From: a virus | Lineage: Duplodnaviria > Caudoviricetes | DNA: 60,795 nucleotides | Virus record (IMG/VR): IMGVR_UViG_3300038318_000336 | Span: 1-60,795 of that record | Strand: one strand, 5' to 3' | Shown: in pieces, positions 20,523-30,556 of the stretch | Position numbering within the stretch: position 1 is the first letter of the stretch | How the letters are laid out: every line of letters starts with the position of its first letter | Translations under genes and position numbers: made by a program | Notes under the pieces: generated by a model | Databases searched by the model: none | What the model was told of the DNA's origin: nothing | Seen by the model: the letters and a program-made list of their open reading frames with translations, nothing else

Positions 20523-23219
20523 TTGAGTAGTGTAGCACAAGCAGCCGGAACTATTTTCGGGGGCCTTATTGGGTTTATTGTTGGCGGCCCTGCTGGAGCT
20601 GTCAAGGGTGCAGCTCTTGGGTACAGTTTGTTTGCACCTCGTTCAGGGTCAAGCCCTACATACTCATTTGGTTCTACCTACAATACTCGTAGCCATGAAC
20701 TTGCTGTGCCTGTGATTTACGGGCGTAACCGTGTAGCAGGCAATACAATATTCGAAAAGATATCAGGCGATAAAGATGAAAAAATAGCGTTGCAAATAGG
20801 TGTCTCTGAAGGCCCTATTAAATCAATTAATGAGATAAAGTGTAATGATATTGGGCTTATTGAGTTAGGGCTAGAGGTTGGAGGAATTTCTCATAGCGTT
20901 AAATTAGGAGAGAGGACTCAAACAGCAGATCCTATCAATGATCAAGGGCAAACCTTTCCTTACTTAGCTTACATTTCTGCTCAATTAACAGCAAATGAAT
21001 TTCTTTCAGGCAGCCCTACCATTACCTCCATCGTCGAAGGCAGAATAATAAAAGTATGGAACGGTAGCTCTTGGACAGAATCTTACAATAACAATCCCGC
21101 TTGGTGTATTCTTGATTTTCTTACCAACAACCGATATGGATTAGGCATTGATGAGCAGTTCATTGACCTGGACAGTTTTATTAACACAGCGGAGCATTGC
21201 AACGGTCTTGTCCCTGATGGCAATGGTGGTCAAGAAAAAAGGTTCCAGCTTGATTATGTGTTAGATGCCAAAAAATCTAGTTTAGACTATATAAAAGAAA
21301 TGCTGGCCACTTTTGCCGGGTTTCTCATATATTCTCAAGGAGAGATTCGCCTTAATACAGACGGGCCGGGGGCACCGACACAATACTTTGATATGGATAA
21401 TATCATTGAGAATTCTTTTTCTTATTCCAAAGCAAGCCGGAAAGACATATACAACCGAGTAAAAGTGCAATATATTGATCCGGATGAACATTGGGAGAAA
21501 ATTTTTGCTCAGTACAGTTTAGATAGTGATATTCGTAAAAATAGGATTAACGAGATAGAGATCCCGCTCTTAGGTATAAGCCGATTTTCTCAAGCCGGCA
21601 GAATGGCTAGATTCTACCAGAAGAAGTCCTGGTTTTGTAATACATTTTGCCAGTTTATGGTAGGCATAAATGATTTAGAGTGTGAAGCTGGAGATATTAT
21701 TGCTGTTACCCATGAAGCGCCGGGTTGGGTGGAGAAGGAATTCCGAGTATTAGAGATCCATGAATTAGAGAACGACGAAATGCGCCTGATTTGTCAGGAA
21801 TATAACATTGCAGTATATTCCGATGACGGAGTGGTACGGCAAATTAAAAAAGATACGGAATTACCAAATCCGTTTGCGTTCCCGGCCAGTGTTATGAATT
21901 TGTCTTTGATTGAACAGGCTAAAATTCTTGGCGACGGAACATGGGTGCCGGGAATTAAAGTAGCTTGGGACAAGCCGAACAATATTTTCTGGAGAGCGGG
22001 TCTTATCTATGTATCTAGCGATGAAGGCGCGACTTGGCATTTTATACAGCGGGTTGAAGGAACAGAATTTCTTATTGATAATTTGGCCCCGGGGACATAC
22101 AAGGTGCGGGTTGTCTCCGAAAACAACCACGGTATAAAACAGGATTTTAGCTTGGCGGCGACCGGACAGATCACTGTGGCTGGGAAGGATGTTGAACCCT
22201 CTGATGTCACCTGGGCAGATTGTTCTTTTATTGATAGGGTTATTTTGCGCTGGAATTCGGTACCGGATACAGATTTGGACGAGTACGAAGTTAGGTTTAA
22301 TGCCAATTTTGGCAGCGATGATGAGTTTTTGGTTTACCGGGGCAAAGGGTTGAGCTTTACGTTAGACAGGCCAGCGCAACGGCAATATACGTTTTATATG
22401 AAGGCAAAAGACCGATCGGGGAACTACAGTAAAAACGCGACGCCGAAAATTGTAGAGAATGCCGTTCCGTCTACTCCGCCCCAACCAATTATCACTGAGT
22501 TTTTCAGCTCACTTTGGATAGAAATACGGCCCGTTTCCGATAACGACATCCTCGGTTACAACCTATACATGACACCTTGCGACGCTCAAGGCAATCCGAA
22601 CGGCGACACGCAGGTAACAACGTACCCGACACCTCAGCGAATCACCTACCAGGCCGAGGTCAAAAGCTCATTCCTGGTTCAAGTGGCGGCATTCGACATA
22701 TTAGGCGAAGGGGAAAAGTGCGCTCCTGTCTTGGCCCGGACGCGGACCATTGATGAAGTGGCGGCTTTTGCGCAAAACGTAACATTCCCGAAGATTGTGG
22801 ATGAGTTGCCGGAATTACCGAGTGATGAATACCCGGCAGATAGCTTGGTGGTACTGTCTACAGACCATCAGCTCTACAGATCGACCGGCACAGAATGGGA
22901 CAACAGCGTCTCGACCGAACAATTAGTAGGCAAAATCACCGCTGGCATGATCGCCGCTGGGGCTATTGGTGCAGCAGAAATTGCGGCGCAGTCTTTGGTA
23001 GCTGATCATTTCGCGGCCGGGAGCATTGAGGCTTATGTGGCGGCGGTAAAAGAGGCTTTTATCGATAGCGCGAAAATTATTAGCATTGAGGCAGACAAAA
23101 TCAAAGTCGGCGGCAGTTCCGCCCCCATCCCCCTAGCCATCAGCCCAACCGACACACTATTTCGCTTTGACGGCTCCCTGCTCAGCACTCAAGGTTTAAA
23201 GCCTCTAGGAATGGAGTGA
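20523..23219 (+). CDS. central tail fibre/host-specificity protein (gpJ-like, FN3 domains)
   Basis: VPVIYGRNRVAGN, NNPAWCILDFLTNNRYGLG, FN3-like repeats, AGAIGAAEIAA coil. Confidence 0.9.
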   Translation: MSSVAQAAGTIFGGLIGFIVGGPAGAVKGAALGYSLFAPRSGSSPTYSFGSTYNTRSHELAVPVIYGRNRVAGNTIFEKISGDKDEKIALQIGVSEGPIKSINEIKCNDIGLIELGLEVGGISHSVKLGERTQTADPINDQGQTFPYLAYISAQLTANEFLSGSPTITSIVEGRIIKVWNGSSWTESYNNNPAWCILDFLTNNRYGLGIDEQFIDLDSFINTAEHCNGLVPDGNGGQEKRFQLDYVLDAKKSSLDYIKEMLATFAGFLIYSQGEIRLNTDGPGAPTQYFDMDNIIENSFSYSKASRKDIYNRVKVQYIDPDEHWEKIFAQYSLDSDIRKNRINEIEIPLLGISRFSQAGRMARFYQKKSWFCNTFCQFMVGINDLECEAGDIIAVTHEAPGWVEKEFRVLEIHELENDEMRLICQEYNIAVYSDDGVVRQIKKDTELPNPFAFPASVMNLSLIEQAKILGDGTWVPGIKVAWDKPNNIFWRAGLIYVSSDEGATWHFIQRVEGTEFLIDNLAPGTYKVRVVSENNHGIKQDFSLAATGQITVAGKDVEPSDVTWADCSFIDRVILRWNSVPDTDLDEYEVRFNANFGSDDEFLVYRGKGLSFTLDRPAQRQYTFYMKAKDRSGNYSKNATPKIVENAVPSTPPQPIITEFFSSLWIEIRPVSDNDILGYNLYMTPCDAQGNPNGDTQVTTYPTPQRITYQAEVKSSFLVQVAAFDILGEGEKCAPVLARTRTIDEVAAFAQNVTFPKIVDELPELPSDEYPADSLVVLSTDHQLYRSTGTEWDNSVSTEQLVGKITAGMIAAGAIGAAEIAAQSLVADHFAAGSIEAYVAAVKEAFIDSAKIISIEADKIKVGGSSAPIPLAISPTDTLFRFDGSLLSTQGLKPLGME

Positions 23220-23223
23220 TAAC

Positions 23224-24774
23224 ATGGCATTAGTACGAACAGATTACGGATTAATTTACAATGATGATGGCTCCCTTTGTGCTACCCTGCTTCCTGAAGG
23301 TGGGGTGGCGGTGGAAGAGGGGACGGAGAATCTAATTCCAGTAGCTAATCAGCTATTTAAATATGGAGTGGGCTGGTCTACATATATGGATTCTGCAGCA
23401 ATTGTTACACAAGATATTGTTGTGCCAGAATGGAGAACTAATAAAGCTACAAGGTTACAACTTAGTGGTGGAACTAACCGGATTAAATATTATGGAGTAG
23501 TTTCTACAGACACAGCCTACTTAGATAATAAAACTTTCGCGGTCCAAGTTTTAGTTAAAAACATAGGTCAAAAAACAGTAGAAGTTGGTGCTAATAGAGG
23601 GTTTATCACAGACAATGTTTTGCCTGGAGAAGTTAAAAAAGTAAAATTAATAGTACCCGCAATTGTCAGTGGAAGCCATTTACAGATCCAATTTAGAACA
23701 TTAGAGATAGAGGATTCATTAGACCTTATTGTATACCAACCAATGGCAGAGGAGGGGTCTTATTGCACCTCCTTCACCGAAGGCACTCGTCTCCCTGGGG
23801 CGTTACCTTATTCGACATCTGTCATAAGTGGCATGAATGAAATTGCAGTATTAATAAAGGCAAAAAGGCCAGTGCACTCACAAGCCATTAGCTATCTTTT
23901 TAGTGCTTCTACCGATCCGTTGCAAAGTCCATACGCAAATACATTTGTCCTGCGTACAACAGAACCCACTAATGGGTTATACTTTTGGACAGTAGATCCT
24001 TTGGGGGAAAATAGCGATCAGCTTGGTGTTAGAGATATATGGCTAGATGATGAAGACCACGATATTGTTGTTTATATGAATCACAATCCAGCTCCTGGTA
24101 GACATAAAAAAGAACTTTATTTTGATGGGGAATTAATAGGATATGCCGATCCTGCCTCGCTTCCGGATTTATCTGCGATAGACCATTTCAACATTGGAAC
24201 GTGGGGGAGTAAAACAATGTGGTGGGGCAGTCCCATTAAAATGTTTTGTATCAAACCCACTTGTACACTAGAACAGGTCAAAGCCTGGCACTCCCTGGAC
24301 GCCCCGTTTTTTGACCCGAGGGAGCAGATTGATGCTGGGGCGAGGCCTGTTAGCGTCCAAGGAACAGGCGGTTCTCTCACTATCAACAACCAAGGTGAAA
24401 AGTGGGTACGCGCAAGTGATGGTAAGGCTATGTACTTTTTCGATGTAAATAACGGCGATGCAGAGTATGCGGGGAGACTAGTGGCCGGAGATGGTAGGAT
24501 CGTGTCCGATGAAGATAGTTTAAGAACCTATGATAAGCCATATACGGACCCTACTGCTATAAAACAAGTAGAGATTGGGACAGATGGAGCATTAACATTC
24601 GGTGCTGGCGCTGGTCGAGCAGATGCGCAAGGCCTACTATTATATGACATTTCCGATCCTAACAACCCCAAAATTATGGTTAGACTTGTTGGCGAAACTG
24701 GTTCCGCAGATTTTGAGGGTATGGTAAAAGCTAAAACTCTAGTAATTCCGGTTGGCACGAATAGGTGGGGATAA
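23224..24774 (+). CDS. tail fibre/receptor-binding protein with CBM- and LamG-like domains
   Basis: VAVEEGTENL, QPMAEEGSYCTSF, LYFDGELIG..FNIG motifs. Confidence 0.75.
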   Translation: MALVRTDYGLIYNDDGSLCATLLPEGGVAVEEGTENLIPVANQLFKYGVGWSTYMDSAAIVTQDIVVPEWRTNKATRLQLSGGTNRIKYYGVVSTDTAYLDNKTFAVQVLVKNIGQKTVEVGANRGFITDNVLPGEVKKVKLIVPAIVSGSHLQIQFRTLEIEDSLDLIVYQPMAEEGSYCTSFTEGTRLPGALPYSTSVISGMNEIAVLIKAKRPVHSQAISYLFSASTDPLQSPYANTFVLRTTEPTNGLYFWTVDPLGENSDQLGVRDIWLDDEDHDIVVYMNHNPAPGRHKKELYFDGELIGYADPASLPDLSAIDHFNIGTWGSKTMWWGSPIKMFCIKPTCTLEQVKAWHSLDAPFFDPREQIDAGARPVSVQGTGGSLTINNQGEKWVRASDGKAMYFFDVNNGDAEYAGRLVAGDGRIVSDEDSLRTYDKPYTDPTAIKQVEIGTDGALTFGAGAGRADAQGLLLYDISDPNNPKIMVRLVGETGSADFEGMVKAKTLVIPVGTNRWG

Positions 24775-24775
24775 C

Positions 24776-25681
24776 ATGAGTGCATATTTCGAAGTAAAAG
24801 GAACTGATATTAAGTGGGAGTACAACGGAAAGTTATATAGTATTACAGGCAACGATGTGGGGGTAGTGGCTGGAAGCCCTGGGAGCATATGGGTAGAGGG
24901 AAATTATCTTGCATATATTGATGAGCTTAATCACAAAAGATTATATTATATTGATCCTACAGGGGTTTTCCCAACCGCTGCTATTCCGGGAGCAATTTTT
25001 GTTAACCAAAACGACAGCATGCTAAGGATAGTTAATTCCTCAAAGGAAGTTAGAATTACCAATCACTCTGATCACAGTGATACATCGGCAATAAATAAAA
25101 CAAAGTATAATGATAGCGATGCTCATAGTGACACTATTATAGTGGATATTCCTCATGCTGACGAAACATATTATAGTGATACTATACCTATTCATGATGA
25201 TTATTCGCCACCATATAGCAATCATTCAGATTATAGTGATACACCTTATTCTGATACACATTCAGATACACCTTACAAAGATTTACCAACATATACAGAT
25301 CACAGCAATTATACCGACCAGCATTATGATGATGTTTATACCGATTATTCTCAACATAACGATGTGGTTCATCATTTCGATGAAACATATACAGACCATA
25401 GTAATTATACTGATCAACATTATGATGATACATATACAGATCATCACAACACTCCTCATAGCGACACCCACAGTGATGCCGCTCATTCTGACAGTGGGGG
25501 GTACACAGATTATACAGATGGGATATATGCAAATTGGACTGATTCCTTGCCCGGCCCAGACCCCCATGCGGACAGAATTTATTCAGATCATTCCGATTGG
25601 GTAAATGAGTCTCATAGTGATTGGAGTGATTATTATAAAAGTGTACAACATTTAGATACTCCTAGAATTCAACAATTATAA
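24776..25681 (+). CDS. tail-module protein with ~40 [HYW]-x-[DN] tripeptide repeats; candidate radical SAM substrate
   Basis: ATG 1 nt after upstream stop, AGGTGGGG RBS; ~95-aa beta-rich N-domain then HSD/YSD/YTD/HAD/WSD array. Confidence 0.85.
   Translation: MSAYFEVKGTDIKWEYNGKLYSITGNDVGVVAGSPGSIWVEGNYLAYIDELNHKRLYYIDPTGVFPTAAIPGAIFVNQNDSMLRIVNSSKEVRITNHSDHSDTSAINKTKYNDSDAHSDTIIVDIPHADETYYSDTIPIHDDYSPPYSNHSDYSDTPYSDTHSDTPYKDLPTYTDHSNYTDQHYDDVYTDYSQHNDVVHHFDETYTDHSNYTDQHYDDTYTDHHNTPHSDTHSDAAHSDSGGYTDYTDGIYANWTDSLPGPDPHADRIYSDHSDWVNESHSDWSDYYKSVQHLDTPRIQQL
25289..25441 (+). repeat. 57-bp internal duplication (TYTDHSNYTDQHYDDxYTD x2)
   Basis: copies at 25289-25345 and 25385-25441; 7 synonymous codon differences and 1 non-synonymous. 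Confidence 0.9.
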
Positions 25682-25695
25682 GGAGGAAACGTGCA

Positions 25696-26997
25696 TTGAG
25701 TGTTTTGGTAAAACCTGAATTAAAATGTAATATGCAGTGTAAATATTGTTACGAACAAGATACGAGACACTGGCAAAGCGATATTGGCGTGGACGTAGAT
25801 AAGGCTATTAAACAAGCGGAAACAATTTATGAGTGCGAAGGAAGAGGAAACTCTATTTGTGCACATGGAGGCGAACCCTTGCTTTTACCTAAGACAGAAT
25901 TAGAAAAAATATTGCAACTAGCACATGAAAAAACAGGATACAGTTCAATACAAACAAACGGGACATTAATTGATGAGGATCATATTAAGATGTTTAAACA
26001 ATACAAGACTGGGGTAGGAATTAGTATTGACGGTAGATGGCCGCTAAATGAATACCGCTGGGCTGGTAGTGAGAAAAAAACAAAAGAAATGACAGAAAAA
26101 ACAATTGCAAATATATATAGACTTGTTAAGGAAGGGGTTGCCCCTGGATTAATTATAGTAATATCAAAAGCAAACGGAACAAAAGAACGATTACCGGTTC
26201 TTAAAGGCTTCTTACAGGAAATGTGTAATGTTGGGGTCGCTTCAATTCGCCTAAATTTAGCTATTTCAGACAAGTGTGGTCTTGCGCCAGAAGAAGCAAA
26301 AGAGACATACTTGGAGCTTTGCAAGTATACGCTAGAAGATTCGAAACGAGCATATCTTCCGTTTCGTGATATGGTAGATAATTTGCTTGGTTTAGGTATG
26401 GGGACGTGTGTTTTTACCAAATGTGATTTTTATCATACGGAAGCAGCGAGAGTTGTCCTTGGGGATGGATCGAGAACGTGTTGCCTGAAAACCGCAGGCA
26501 GCGATCGGCCTTTTATATGGGATTCTCAGTGTTCGGATATAAGATATCAAATTTTAGGCTCTATCCCAAGAGATGAAGGTGGATGTAGTGATTGCAGGTA
26601 TTGGCGGGTATGTTATGGATTTTGCCCATCGGAGACACCAGGAGGAGATTGGCGAAACCGGGCAATATATTGCGAAGCGTATTATGCTTGTTTCAAATAT
26701 ATAGAGAACCGATTAAAAGGGATATTGCCAAATGTGGTTTTGGTTCCGGGGGTTGAAGTTGAAGATGAACAAAAAGACTATCATGAACGCAAAGGGAATT
26801 GCTGGCACATTGAGCCTTTTAAATCGATGAGCCTATCTGCTGAGACAAGGAATCCGTCTACGTGGAAAGAAACGGCCAGACAAATGGTGTACCAAAATAA
26901 CAGCAAAGGCCTTCAATTCGAAAAATACAAACAGGCTATACCAGGTAAACCTGGATACTACCACGCAGACCATGCAGACCAAGGAGGGTGTAAATAA
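25696..26997 (+). CDS. radical SAM/SPASM domain protein (peptide-maturase type)
   Basis: CNMQCKYC, HGGEPLL, IQTNGTLI, GISIDG; SPASM Cys set CVFTKC...CC...CSDCRYWRVCYGFC...YC; AGGAGG RBS with TTG start. Confidence 0.95.
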   Translation: MSVLVKPELKCNMQCKYCYEQDTRHWQSDIGVDVDKAIKQAETIYECEGRGNSICAHGGEPLLLPKTELEKILQLAHEKTGYSSIQTNGTLIDEDHIKMFKQYKTGVGISIDGRWPLNEYRWAGSEKKTKEMTEKTIANIYRLVKEGVAPGLIIVISKANGTKERLPVLKGFLQEMCNVGVASIRLNLAISDKCGLAPEEAKETYLELCKYTLEDSKRAYLPFRDMVDNLLGLGMGTCVFTKCDFYHTEAARVVLGDGSRTCCLKTAGSDRPFIWDSQCSDIRYQILGSIPRDEGGCSDCRYWRVCYGFCPSETPGGDWRNRAIYCEAYYACFKYIENRLKGILPNVVLVPGVEVEDEQKDYHERKGNCWHIEPFKSMSLSAETRNPSTWKETARQMVYQNNSKGLQFEKYKQAIPGKPGYYHADHADQGGCK

Positions 26998-26998
26998 A

Positions 26999-27826
26999 AT
27001 GGAACTTACTCAGATGGCGGATTTGTTTCCTTTTACACGTGTTATTTATAATTCTCCAAAAGCACAGGAGATATGGGAACCAAAAATAAAAAGAGCTTCA
27101 TCCATTCACAACGAAGCAGAATTTGAAATGGTTAGGATGGGATATCGACGAGCTGCTACTCTGCATATTTCTCCATATGATTACGAGAAAAGTATAGAAA
27201 AAATCATCAGAAACGGATTGGCATGGCTGCCGATTCAACGAACAAAGAATTATAATGGTTTTTCTCATAAACATTTTCCGACAGACCCGGAAGATCCGGA
27301 TTCTTCTGTTTACGGGGTATTGGCTAAAACCATAGAAGATGCAGAAATGTTTCGAAATGCTTCACGTGGACAAGCAACAGATCATAATATAATAGGAGAG
27401 TTGCTTGGATTCCCTCAATGTTGTAGAGATTTCTTTGACACCGTTTGGATGGCCGGATATATTGATCCAATTTGGCAAGCAGCAGAAAAGACAGAAGGCG
27501 CTGAAAAATTATCTGATACCCATATAATATTAAAGAAAATATATCCTGAAGCAATGCAAGCTTTTAGATATATAGGGCCACGAATAACTTCCCATTTGTC
27601 TTGCTCTTTTACATGCGAAGAAAGCAAAAAGGAAGGCCAAAAGTGGATAGAGTGTATGGAAAAGTTTGATGCTGAAGGGTTGCAAGCTATGATGAATATA
27701 TTGACGTTGCCATTTAAATGGTCTGTAAAATGGGGAGTTGCCATTATCTCTACCCCGCATTTCCGGATAATAACAAATTCCATGGCAGCCAAAAAAGAGT
27801 ACATCATTGAGTATATACCACAATAA
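26999..27826 (+). CDS. DUF483-like Cys-motif protein, partner of the radical SAM gene
   Basis: IGELLGFPQCCRDFF and SHLSCSFTCEES motifs; ATG 1 nt after rSAM stop. Confidence 0.6.
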   Translation: MELTQMADLFPFTRVIYNSPKAQEIWEPKIKRASSIHNEAEFEMVRMGYRRAATLHISPYDYEKSIEKIIRNGLAWLPIQRTKNYNGFSHKHFPTDPEDPDSSVYGVLAKTIEDAEMFRNASRGQATDHNIIGELLGFPQCCRDFFDTVWMAGYIDPIWQAAEKTEGAEKLSDTHIILKKIYPEAMQAFRYIGPRITSHLSCSFTCEESKKEGQKWIECMEKFDAEGLQAMMNILTLPFKWSVKWGVAIISTPHFRIITNSMAAKKEYIIEYIPQ

Positions 27827-29164: not shown

Positions 29165-29722
29165 ATGGCAGACTTTGAAAAAGCGGTACAGAAAACCTTG
29201 TCCCTGGAAGGCGGTTACGTCAACGACCCAGCCGACCCTGGCGGTGCCACGAAGTACGGGATCGCCGAAGCCACCGCCAGGGCTCATGGTTATATCGGTG
29301 ACATGCGGTTGCTAACGGTAGAAACGGCAAAAGCCATCTACAAAACAAGTTATTGGGACGTTGCTCGGCTTGACGAGGTAGAGAGCCAGCTCATAGCCGA
29401 AAACATCTTTGATTGTAATGTGAATTGCGGGGCGAAAATAGGTGGCAGATTATTACAGGAGTCTCTGAACCTCATTAACATCGACCCCGCCGGCCGACAA
29501 ATGTGGCCAGTCATTACGGTAGACGGCATTGTGGGAAACGGAACGCTTCAAACATTAAACCAAGCTCTCCGCTCAAGACGAGATATGGAGAGCTTAATTA
29601 TTGTGATGTTTAACTGTTTGCGGGCGAATCGGTATGTAAGCATTATAAAAAACAGGCCGGCTAGTAAGAAATTTATGATTGGTTGGCTAAAACATCGGGT
29701 TTGGTTGGAGGTGAGAACATGA
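29165..29722 (+). CDS. endolysin, glycoside hydrolase family 108
   Basis: EGGYVNDPADPGGATKYGI, VDGIVGNGTL, KFMIGWLKHRV. Confidence 0.92.
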   Translation: MADFEKAVQKTLSLEGGYVNDPADPGGATKYGIAEATARAHGYIGDMRLLTVETAKAIYKTSYWDVARLDEVESQLIAENIFDCNVNCGAKIGGRLLQESLNLINIDPAGRQMWPVITVDGIVGNGTLQTLNQALRSRRDMESLIIVMFNCLRANRYVSIIKNRPASKKFMIGWLKHRVWLEVRT

Positions 29723-29994
29723 GAACCGGAACCAAAATCTCTATCCTCCTGGTTATCTGGACGATGTTATTAGTCACATTCCTTGTAGTTGGTCTTGTCT
29801 GTCTCTCTATTGACCACCCAGACCTAAAAGAACTTTGGACGCAGGTAGCGCCAATCATCACTGCTCTTTTAGGGACTGGGGGATTGGGGTTTGGAATAAA
29901 CGAAGTAAGAAAAGCTGTAGAAAATAAAAGTTTTAACCTAAAAAATAAGCAAAAGGAAAATTTAGAAAGTGAAAATGAAACAGAAAAGCTATAA
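29719..29994 (+). CDS. holin candidate (2 TM)
   Basis: two hydrophobic helices, charged C-tail, overlaps endolysin stop. Confidence 0.65.
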   Translation: MRTGTKISILLVIWTMLLVTFLVVGLVCLSIDHPDLKELWTQVAPIITALLGTGGLGFGINEVRKAVENKSFNLKNKQKENLESENETEKL

Positions 29995-30556
29995 AATCAT
30001 TGTCGATTCAGGGGAAAGAGATATACCACAAGTATTGACCCCAATTTGCTCTGAAGTAGGATCCTTGGTTATTTCACATGAGGATGAAATTGCATATGAT
30101 ATAGCATGGCGAACAGAACAGAAACTAACCCAAAAGGGTTGTTTGTCTTTTCTTTCGCGAAACAGAGGAAAGCTTAGCACTATACAAAACCGTTGTGATT
30201 TTGCAAACAAGATGAAAGCCGATTTATTTGTTTCTATTTATATTAACAACACAAATGACCAGACAACAAGCGGGCTTCAGGTTTATTCTTGCCAAGGCTC
30301 AAGGCCAGGGGCAATGCTCCGGAATGCAATTTATGGCGAGGTCAGGCGATTGTTCCCGGACTGGGCAGACCAGGGGACTAAAGAAGCCGGGTTTTATGTT
30401 TTGCGGGGAACCGATATGCCGGCGGTTACCGTCGAGTGCGGGCGCCTATCTAATCCAGAAGAAAAGAAACTCTTAACCTTGCCAGAGATAAGAGAACGGT
30501 TTGCCGAGGGGATTGCAGCGGGGGTAGAATCGTATTTGGTGGCAATACAGGATTAA
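29969..30556 (+). CDS. Amidase_3-fold protein with Zn-binding His residues lost
   Basis: ADLFVSIYIN, FYVLRGTDMPAVTVECG; IIVDSGE where DxGH is expected. Confidence 0.75.
   Translation: MKMKQKSYKIIVDSGERDIPQVLTPICSEVGSLVISHEDEIAYDIAWRTEQKLTQKGCLSFLSRNRGKLSTIQNRCDFANKMKADLFVSIYINNTNDQTTSGLQVYSCQGSRPGAMLRNAIYGEVRRLFPDWADQGTKEAGFYVLRGTDMPAVTVECGRLSNPEEKKLLTLPEIRERFAEGIAAGVESYLVAIQD

Follow-up and report, generated by a model that had tools for sequence, protein, structure and literature searches.

Triceptide synthases are radical S-adenosylmethionine (rSAM) enzymes that act on three-residue motifs, in which they link an aromatic ring, the C2 position of histidine included, to the C-beta of residue three; HAA, HNR and HTK are proven His-containing substrates, motifs of this kind being modified by HaaB, YhhB and HtkB, and receive His-C2 to C-beta links (PMC11499958, in the available part of its text). 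In the HXS anti-phage system, the His-Xaa-Ser repeats of HxsA are matured by the rSAM enzymes HxsB and HxsC (PMC13128918, available part of the text). A three-gene 'rSAM module' has also been noted in the Thermus phages Cumys and phiMa, for which an unknown DNA modification was suggested (bioRxiv 10.1101/2024.08.14.607894, available part); the words 'HxD' and 'histidine' are absent from the available text of that preprint. Here, we describe an rSAM enzyme encoded by a tailed phage (Duplodnaviria; Caudoviricetes; IMG/VR record IMGVR_UViG_3300038318_000336, positions 1 to 60,795, a stretch of 60,795 nucleotides that we call the window). The enzyme carries near its C-terminus the tandem motif HADHAD, made of His-x-Asp (HxD) units of the kind that fill the protein encoded directly upstream. 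As judged from its homologues, a C-terminal HxD tail is a feature of the family, and HADHAD is the version of it found in the window. Within the papers searched, no description of HxD-repeat proteins, of their link to this rSAM enzyme, of the enzyme tail or of cyclophane systems in tail fibres was found, the Thermus phage preprint being the only related report; related precursors may be listed in the JACS triceptide-landscape paper and in supplements, which lie outside that set.

Results

The radical SAM enzyme ends in a conserved HxD tail

The enzyme gene and the elements within it are as follows.

25696..26997, + strand: radical SAM/SPASM protein maturase, 433 residues (assigned from Pfam Radical_SAM, NCBIfam, AlphaFold2 and Foldseek)
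25726..25749, + strand: CxxxCxxC radical SAM cluster motif (C11, C15, C18), invariant columns in 94 aligned sequences
26407..26673, + strand: Cys residues of SPASM-type auxiliary clusters (C238, C243, C263, C297, C300, C306, C310, C326), all eight invariant in the 94-sequence alignment
26830..26937, + strand: linker, residues 379-414, poorly conserved (identity 0.40 over 386-414) and predicted to be disordered (predicted local distance difference test, pLDDT, below 50)
26938..26982, + strand: conserved tail block IPGKPGYYHADHADQ, residues 415-429 (identity 0.87 among five clade members)
26981..26988, + strand: Shine-Dalgarno AAGGAGGG of the downstream gene, within the last enzyme codons (Q-G-G), read from the sequence, 10 nucleotides before the ATG at 26999

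The open reading frame (ORF) at 25696..26997 starts with a TTG that aligns with the Met of homologues, and the C-terminus of its product reads ...IPGKPGYYHADHADQGGCK / ...AIPGKPGYYHADHADQGGCK up to the stop. The segment singled out in the original prediction, 26953-26997, has exact coordinates: G420 begins at 26953, the segment is translated as GYYHADHADQGGCK and the stop codon TAA occupies 26995-26997, so that the enzyme does end in a tail bearing HADHAD (residues 423-428, nucleotides 26962-26979). The extension that follows the SPASM domain, earlier put at about 90 residues, measures about 88 (residues ~346-433). Given the composition of the enzyme (9 His and 23 Asp in 433 residues), a tandem H.DH.D is expected ~5e-4 times anywhere in the protein, and a six-frame scan of the whole window finds nine tandem [HYWF]xD[HYWF]xD in total, five of them in the upstream repeat ORF and one of them the enzyme tail. 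Given also its conservation in homologues, the HADHAD tail is, by this reckoning from sequence, far beyond chance.

An alignment of homologues, the check proposed with the original prediction, finds the tail rather than its absence. Of the 163 homologues returned by a word-index search, 13 were aligned with the window protein; the tail is present in 10 and missing from three. All four close homologues (63-77% identity) end in PGKPG[YH][YF]HADHAD, and six more distant ones (~37-40% identity) finish in HGD-type repeats, for example HGDRPHGDRPHGDHGD. A viral scan with the single protein gave one weak locus only; alignment-based scans gave 80 genome loci and 80 viral loci, and an ORF matching at blastp E ≤ 1e-20 is present in 82 of the scanned loci. 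The ORFs of the loci were pooled with the database proteins, and removal of identical and incomplete sequences left a family set of 163 unique complete members. At least two HxD units follow the SPASM domain in 78 of these 163 (38 of 46 viral members, 2 of 10 from cellular genome contigs, 37 of 106 from the protein database, and the window protein), tandem H.DH.D occurs in 49 of the 163, and the density of H.D per 100 residues is 3.05 after the SPASM domain versus 0.14 in the cores. The tails share a recurrent core, (P)HGD...H[GA]DH[TAGW]D (as in HGDHTD, PHADHTD or HGDHWD), the H[GA]DH[TAGW]D part of which recurs across clades that are only ~30% identical in the catalytic core. In several clades, additional conserved motifs, among them GIPATxLxExPxW and ETGRYxxEFxxKYG, are encoded 3' of the HxD units. 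An exhaustive phmmer search against 1.84 billion representatives found 295 clusters (50% identity) at E ≤ 1e-30; among the best 150 of these, 115 parse as complete, with at least two HxD in the 150 residues after the SPASM domain in 56 of the 115 and the tandem in 30. Conversely, when 76 unique rSAM ORFs of lower similarity (E > 1e-35) from the same loci served as a control, not one had an HxD tail (at least two HxD in the last 80 residues).

These comparisons indicate that the tail is specific to the one rSAM family partnered with an HxD-repeat protein, and that it is a real functional element, conserved across many related phage enzymes. The pattern of substitution likewise indicates that the tail is under purifying selection: in the clade of five, identity to the window protein is 0.87 in the tail block (415-429) and 0.74 in the catalytic core, and falls to 0.40 in the linker (386-414). 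The QGG that ends the enzyme may be conserved in the clade of the window because it overlaps with the Shine-Dalgarno AAGGAGGG of the downstream gene. The overlap cannot account for HADHAD, however, because the HADHAD-type core recurs in clades with different gene junctions. Within the HADHAD codons, an in-frame ATG at 26972 could lengthen the downstream gene by nine codons; against this start, alignments with homologues of the downstream protein begin at the Met encoded at 26999, and a strong Shine-Dalgarno lies 10 nucleotides before that codon.

Type and predicted structure of the enzyme

The enzyme scores 56.1 bits against Pfam Radical_SAM (PF04055; cut-off 29.5), which places it in the radical SAM superfamily, and Fer4_12 is also matched. 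No SPASM model is among the Pfam matches listed for it, and the SPASM/anSME-like assignment (anSME, anaerobic sulfatase-maturating enzyme) rests on the eight invariant Cys (238-326) together with full-length Foldseek matches at E ~1e-14, the top ones being anSME 4k37 (E 1.8e-14, TM-score of 0.72 on the target) and ChlB 9gm3/9gmc (E 3.5e-14). A phmmer search of PDB sequences again returned anSME and ChlB. The best NCBIfam models are DynA, YhhB, AmcB, anSME, GrrM/OscB, XyeB and FxsB, every one of them far below its cut-off, including those for the equivalogs of triceptide synthases (86.2 bits versus 445 for YhhB, 84 versus 425 for AmcB, 57.2 versus 310 for GrrM/OscB, 52.1 versus 450 for XyeB and 50.8 versus 370 for FxsB). 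Taken together, the profile and fold matches indicate that the enzyme is an rSAM/SPASM maturase of proteins or peptides, of the anSME/triceptide type but outside every curated equivalog, and that it belongs to a mostly phage-borne clade of anSME/ChlB-like rSAM-SPASM protein maturases. The AlphaFold2 model, built from the 94-sequence alignment, has a mean pLDDT of 84.3 and is confident to about residue 378, with the last confident helix at 326-343; in contrast, the linker and tail (residues 379-433) have a pLDDT below 50, a prediction of disorder.

Several homologues carry inteins (Pfam intein and LAGLIDADG families in the family members P0125 and P0126), and in P0142, P0156, P0236, P0256 and P0157 a long insert lies inside or directly after the CxxxCxxC motif.

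The enzyme lies in a three-gene cassette of the tail module

The genes around the enzyme are, in order, the following.

20523..23219, + strand: central tail fibre J-like protein, 898 residues (PHROG phrog_31, 'central tail fiber J', E 3.8e-90)
23224..24774, + strand: fibre-like protein, 516 residues, directly upstream of the cassette (NCBIfam 'phage head spike fiber domain', E 2.6e-4, a weak match below cut-off)
24752..25681, + strand: His/Tyr-x-Asp repeat protein, presumed substrate (translation; the likely true start is the ATG at 24776)
26999..27826, + strand: DUF483-like partner, 275 residues, third gene of the cassette (Pfam DUF483, E 0.0089, below cut-off)

The repeat protein begins with a globular region, in which a GSPGSIWVEGNYLAYID unit lies, and continues with about 38 [HYWF]-x-D units at up to 14 per 60 residues, so that the enzyme, like triceptide synthases, has a neighbour rich in aromatic-X-X motifs. 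HSDHSD and YTDYTD, to which the tail had been likened, are both present among its tandems, as are HSDYSD, YSDHSD and HSDWSD. No Pfam, NCBIfam or PHROG family matches the protein; over the N-terminal part, it shows homology to the equivalent ORF of 31 other loci. This N-terminus (24776-25090) contains a unit of the type G-x-PGS-x-W-[IV]-[ED]-G-x-x-L-x-Y-[IL]-D, which closes in an aromatic-x-Asp triplet and is found in one clear copy in the window and in three in Cumys_13 of the Thermus phage Cumys (L163:4961-5260); PGKPG likewise precedes the enzyme tail in the clade of the window. Across the family, an HxD-dense ORF is found on the same strand in 68 of 81 loci, directly upstream of the enzyme in 49, farther upstream in 17 and downstream in two, and holds up to 16 units per 60 residues, mostly with a 5-residue period. 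Together with the lack of tails among the 76 distant rSAM ORFs, this strongly supports the earlier suggestion that the tail is independent evidence tying the enzyme to the repeat.

Of 80 family loci, 70 encode a homologue of the DUF483-like protein, in most cases as the next gene after the rSAM. The protein is modelled by AlphaFold2 with a pLDDT of 96.2 and has invariant C141, C142, D156, C202 and C206, a near-invariant H199 and a GFPxCC motif. The model has no PDB match at E ≤ 0.001 in Foldseek, and the best VIA-align Z score is 6.5, to 2guk (a protein of unknown function), with NleE at 4.5. Longer homologues (L104:9161-10450, L109:3704-5173) add a weak class-I methyltransferase domain, and the rSAM and DUF483 domains are fused, in some cases with the methyltransferase, in L011 and P0124. 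At least three HxD units were found in no DUF483-like homologue of the family loci. The conservation of gene content indicates that the HxD/YxD-repeat protein, the rSAM enzyme and the DUF483-like protein are a conserved cassette that sits in tail modules; in the window, the cassette comes after the central tail fibre J homologue and the fibre-like protein, the latter also matching PHROG phrog_38142, of unknown function, at E 3.3e-16.

Gene order within the cassette varies: soil bacteria of one clade (L165-L244; for example L165, L166 and L172) often have rSAM, DUF483-methyltransferase and HxD-repeat protein in that sequence, the repeat ORF lying downstream in 14 loci and upstream in 26. A pair of HxD-repeat and rSAM genes also occurs in a nanohaloarchaeal metagenome-assembled genome, a Halomicrococcus plasmid and a Halorubellus genome (L005, L007 and L012), where the enzymes end in long acidic segments that contain no more than one clear HxD. 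After the cassette, the window has a lysis-type block (29165-30556, + strand) with a 185-residue protein, a homologue of which lies beside the cassette in L086 (E 1e-30), and a further ORF at 29969-30556.

The tail resembles the repeats in register and differs from them in composition

The original prediction held that the tail has the same aromatic-x-D unit and register as the upstream protein, and this stands in part. Tail and repeat units have in common a strict Asp at position 3 and a 5/4/3-residue spacing; however, the tails use His almost exclusively, are biased to Gly, do not follow the Tyr content of the partner and are absent from many lineages that have the repeat. A recent DNA copy of the neighbouring repeat gene was considered as the source of the tail and rejected: in only two of 41 loci is the longest exact match of the tail to its own repeat gene longer than its matches to each of 67 unrelated ones, and the 8 nucleotides that the window tail shares with its own repeat gene are reached by 23 of the 67 controls.

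Gains, losses and fused forms of the tail

In a tree built from the cores only, presence of the tail is clustered: the clade of the window is tail-bearing throughout (5/5), and a large, mostly cellular clade is mostly tail-less. The number of units in a tail ranges from 2 to 24. In P0005, the whole PGKPGY-HxD-[HY]xD unit is duplicated; P0251 has 24 HxD units fused to the rSAM domain, many of them as tandem HxDHxD; and in P0216 (567 residues), 18 HxD units are followed by two predicted hydrophobic helices, so that this protein would be a membrane-anchored fusion of enzyme and array. In P0227, the tail is placed between the rSAM and methyltransferase domains. The long-array fusions came from the exhaustive search; the word index gave only rSAM-DUF483-methyltransferase fusions and intein-bearing forms. 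A metagenome scan with P0251 yielded the 80 loci of the soil clade, with 75 complete enzymes that are 46-59% identical relatives, none of which has a long array. A separate HxD ORF is present in 11 of the 15 tail-bearing loci of this clade.

Discussion

The phage enzyme probably cross-links the tail-module protein that carries the His/Tyr-x-Asp repeats. In analogy to triceptide synthases, it would most likely staple the numerous His/Tyr-x-Asp units of the upstream protein, a type of activity that we consider supported by the family and fold matches, the best of which are cyclophane-forming maturases and anSME. The tail itself may be a cis substrate or pseudo-substrate of such a triceptide-type His/Tyr-to-Asp cross-linking enzyme, a reading that we favour tentatively. 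The tail would hang on a disordered linker of ~40-70 residues and serve as an internal replica of the recognition unit that fits into the active site of its own enzyme molecule or of one next to it. When no repeat protein is at hand, the tail would occupy the radical site, perhaps with a regulatory effect, and it would itself probably be cross-linked. Because the linker is long and predicted to be disordered, the tail should be sterically free to reach the active site. Moreover, P0005, P0216 and P0251 form a continuum from a short tail to full arrays in cis, which we count in support of a cis substrate, and the long fused arrays and the exact register favour substrate-like readings in general.

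Several observations weigh against this reading. First, the tail is dispensable: it is missing from 85 of the 163 family members, the core-only tree needs 13 changes of tail state, at least seven of them forced by well-supported branches, and in the soil clade only 15 of the 75 enzymes have a tail, while 29 of the other 60 are nonetheless accompanied by an HxD-dense ORF. Second, the composition of the tail is its own. The second position is Gly in 58% of 335 tail units, as compared with 15% of 1922 repeat units (S 21%, T 19%, G 15%), and the tails are nearly all His (335 H, 11 Y, 7 W, 3 F) even when the partner is rich in Tyr, as it is in the window; nor does the use of Tyr in the tail track that of the partner (Mann-Whitney p = 0.84, 8 versus 33 loci). 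This distinct, Gly-rich signature and the lack of Tyr covariation make it less plausible that the tail is just a further substrate unit; a specialised mimic, a tag and a metal site would each account for them to about the same degree. Third, AlphaFold2 leaves the tail undocked with the 94-sequence alignment. A prediction of the complex of the core (1-378) with the tail (379-433), SAM and three 4Fe-4S clusters, run without controls, gave interface scores (ipSAE) of 0.02 and 0.17 (mark 0.32) and is counted neither for nor against binding.

Of the other explanations, a tether or docking tag fares best, although we consider it unlikely. Here, the tail would stay unprocessed and would hold on to the HxD array through a like-with-like, perhaps metal-bridged, contact, or else would dock the DUF483-like partner; in either case, the concentration near the target would rise, and dozens of units could be modified processively. 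A composition unlike that of the substrate is what such a tag could have, and the motifs conserved past the HxD units suggest a region of interaction. The DUF483-like gene is present in 49 of 52 tail-bearing loci (two of the three exceptions have no room for it on the contig) and in 14 of 15 in the soil clade, and in the fusions P0124 and L011 the DUF483 domain follows the rSAM domain exactly at the place of the tail; in P0227, the methyltransferase domain comes after the tail. However, the DUF483-like gene is also present in 21 of 28 tail-less loci, and in 48 of the 60 tail-less loci of the soil clade, which argues that the partner can do without the tail.

Both His and Asp are well-known ligands of metals, and His-rich tails act as metal stores in some accessory proteins of metallo-enzymes. 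The (P)HGD...HxDHxD tail could thus bind divalent Fe, Zn or Ni for loading or stability of the clusters, its likeness to the repeat arising only because both are metal-binding sequences of His and Asp. The tandem HxDHxD core offers two His and two Asp in six residues, and the tails are uniform (HGD-rich, often with Pro before) whatever the composition of the partner repeat. We nevertheless think this distinctly improbable, since the tail is confined to the rSAM family that neighbours an HxD-repeat protein and was found in none of the 76 other rSAM/SPASM ORFs, half of the family works without it, and neither the strict H-x-D register nor the 5/4/3 spacing of the partner repeats is what one would expect a tail that simply binds metal to preserve. 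Least likely of all, and in our view very improbable, is a neutral remnant of recombination or slippage with the adjacent repetitive gene, without a function of its own, which would fit the labile history of the tail (at least 7 to 13 gains and losses, patchy even among relatives 46-59% identical) and its variable length, but not a tail block that outdoes the catalytic core in conservation in the clade of the window, a core motif that recurs among enzymes ~30% identical, a composition different from that of the repeats or the lack of excess DNA identity with the repeat gene of the same locus.

The cis substrate or pseudo-substrate reading can be taken further, to a picture in which the phage puts RiPP-type radical chemistry (that of ribosomally synthesised and post-translationally modified peptides) on a tail-module protein, with dozens of His/Tyr-to-Asp staples per chain, and in which the conserved cis pseudo-substrate of the maturase is cross-linked and gates the radical site. 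In this full form we find it somewhat unlikely. If true, a large and mostly viral family, which comprises the 295 clusters found by the exhaustive search, would perform peptide-natural-product chemistry on phage tail-module proteins, and triceptide-type cross-linking would extend from small secreted peptides to virion-associated proteins. Also if true, the tail would be a new example of enzyme-substrate fusion and of pseudo-substrate control among rSAM enzymes, and the first case of an rSAM maturase that ends in its own substrate, the rSAM counterpart of the autocatalytic borosin and BURP enzymes. A function would, moreover, be assigned to the DUF483-linked 'rSAM modules', and the guess of DNA modification for the Thermus phage module would be overturned. 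Since cultured phages of Thermus thermophilus (Cumys, phiMa and phiLo) carry the cassette, the question is open to direct bench work.

As regards known systems, the closest solved fold is that of an anSME (4k37), and anSME acts on whole proteins without a leader peptide. The window enzyme differs from it in scoring 80.7 bits against the anSME model (cut-off 349) and in its surroundings, which have no sulfatase nearby and an HxD-repeat protein as neighbour. Borosin N-methyltransferases (OphMA) and plant BURP-domain cyclases are enzymes that carry their own substrate motif, with fused and split forms in one family. The likeness is one of concept only, a modifying enzyme with its own substrate motif, for which the window enzyme shows the sequence prerequisite, a putative substrate motif on a C-terminal tail predicted to be disordered; borosins and BURP cyclases are of unrelated enzyme class and chemistry, the family described here keeps a large separate presumed substrate beside a short tail, and release of a product derived from the tail is not expected.

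The HXS system resembles the cassette in that an rSAM enzyme matures a protein of His-x-small-residue repeats in phage-host biology (PMC13128918, as far as its available text describes the system). The window enzyme does not belong to it by score (HxsB model, 46.2 bits versus 370), and the cassette, compared with the same text, has one rSAM enzyme instead of two and no HxsD; its repeats number dozens, not five, and have Asp in the place of Ser, and its genes are those of the phage and not of the host. The triceptide synthases (HaaB, YhhB, HtkB, ChlB, XyeB and OscB/GrrM) share more: an rSAM domain from about residue 10, no N-terminal RiPP recognition element, a SPASM domain, a partner with many aromatic-x-x units, and the best NCBIfam and PDB matches of the window enzyme. 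They differ in acting on a short leader-core peptide, in contrast to the 200-1400-residue phage tail-module protein, and the strict x-x-Asp motif, the motif at the C-terminus of the enzyme and the conserved DUF483-like third gene are features of the family of the window, unlike triceptide synthases. The Thermus phage Cumys has the same cassette, with Cumys_13 as the HxD-repeat protein, Cumys_12 as the rSAM enzyme, which ends in EHGDYTDHGDAPHGDHWDG and is 37.6% identical over 80% of the query, and Cumys_11 as the DUF483 protein; genes for the baseplate and the tail collar fibre precede the cassette in Cumys, the three genes of the Cumys/phiMa-type module are all found in the window in that order, and in phage phiLo the rSAM enzyme phiLo_142 ends in HGDHNDHGDHTD. 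The repeat protein and the enzyme tail, both read from sequence, point to modification of a protein, not of DNA, as the role of the Thermus phage rSAM module.

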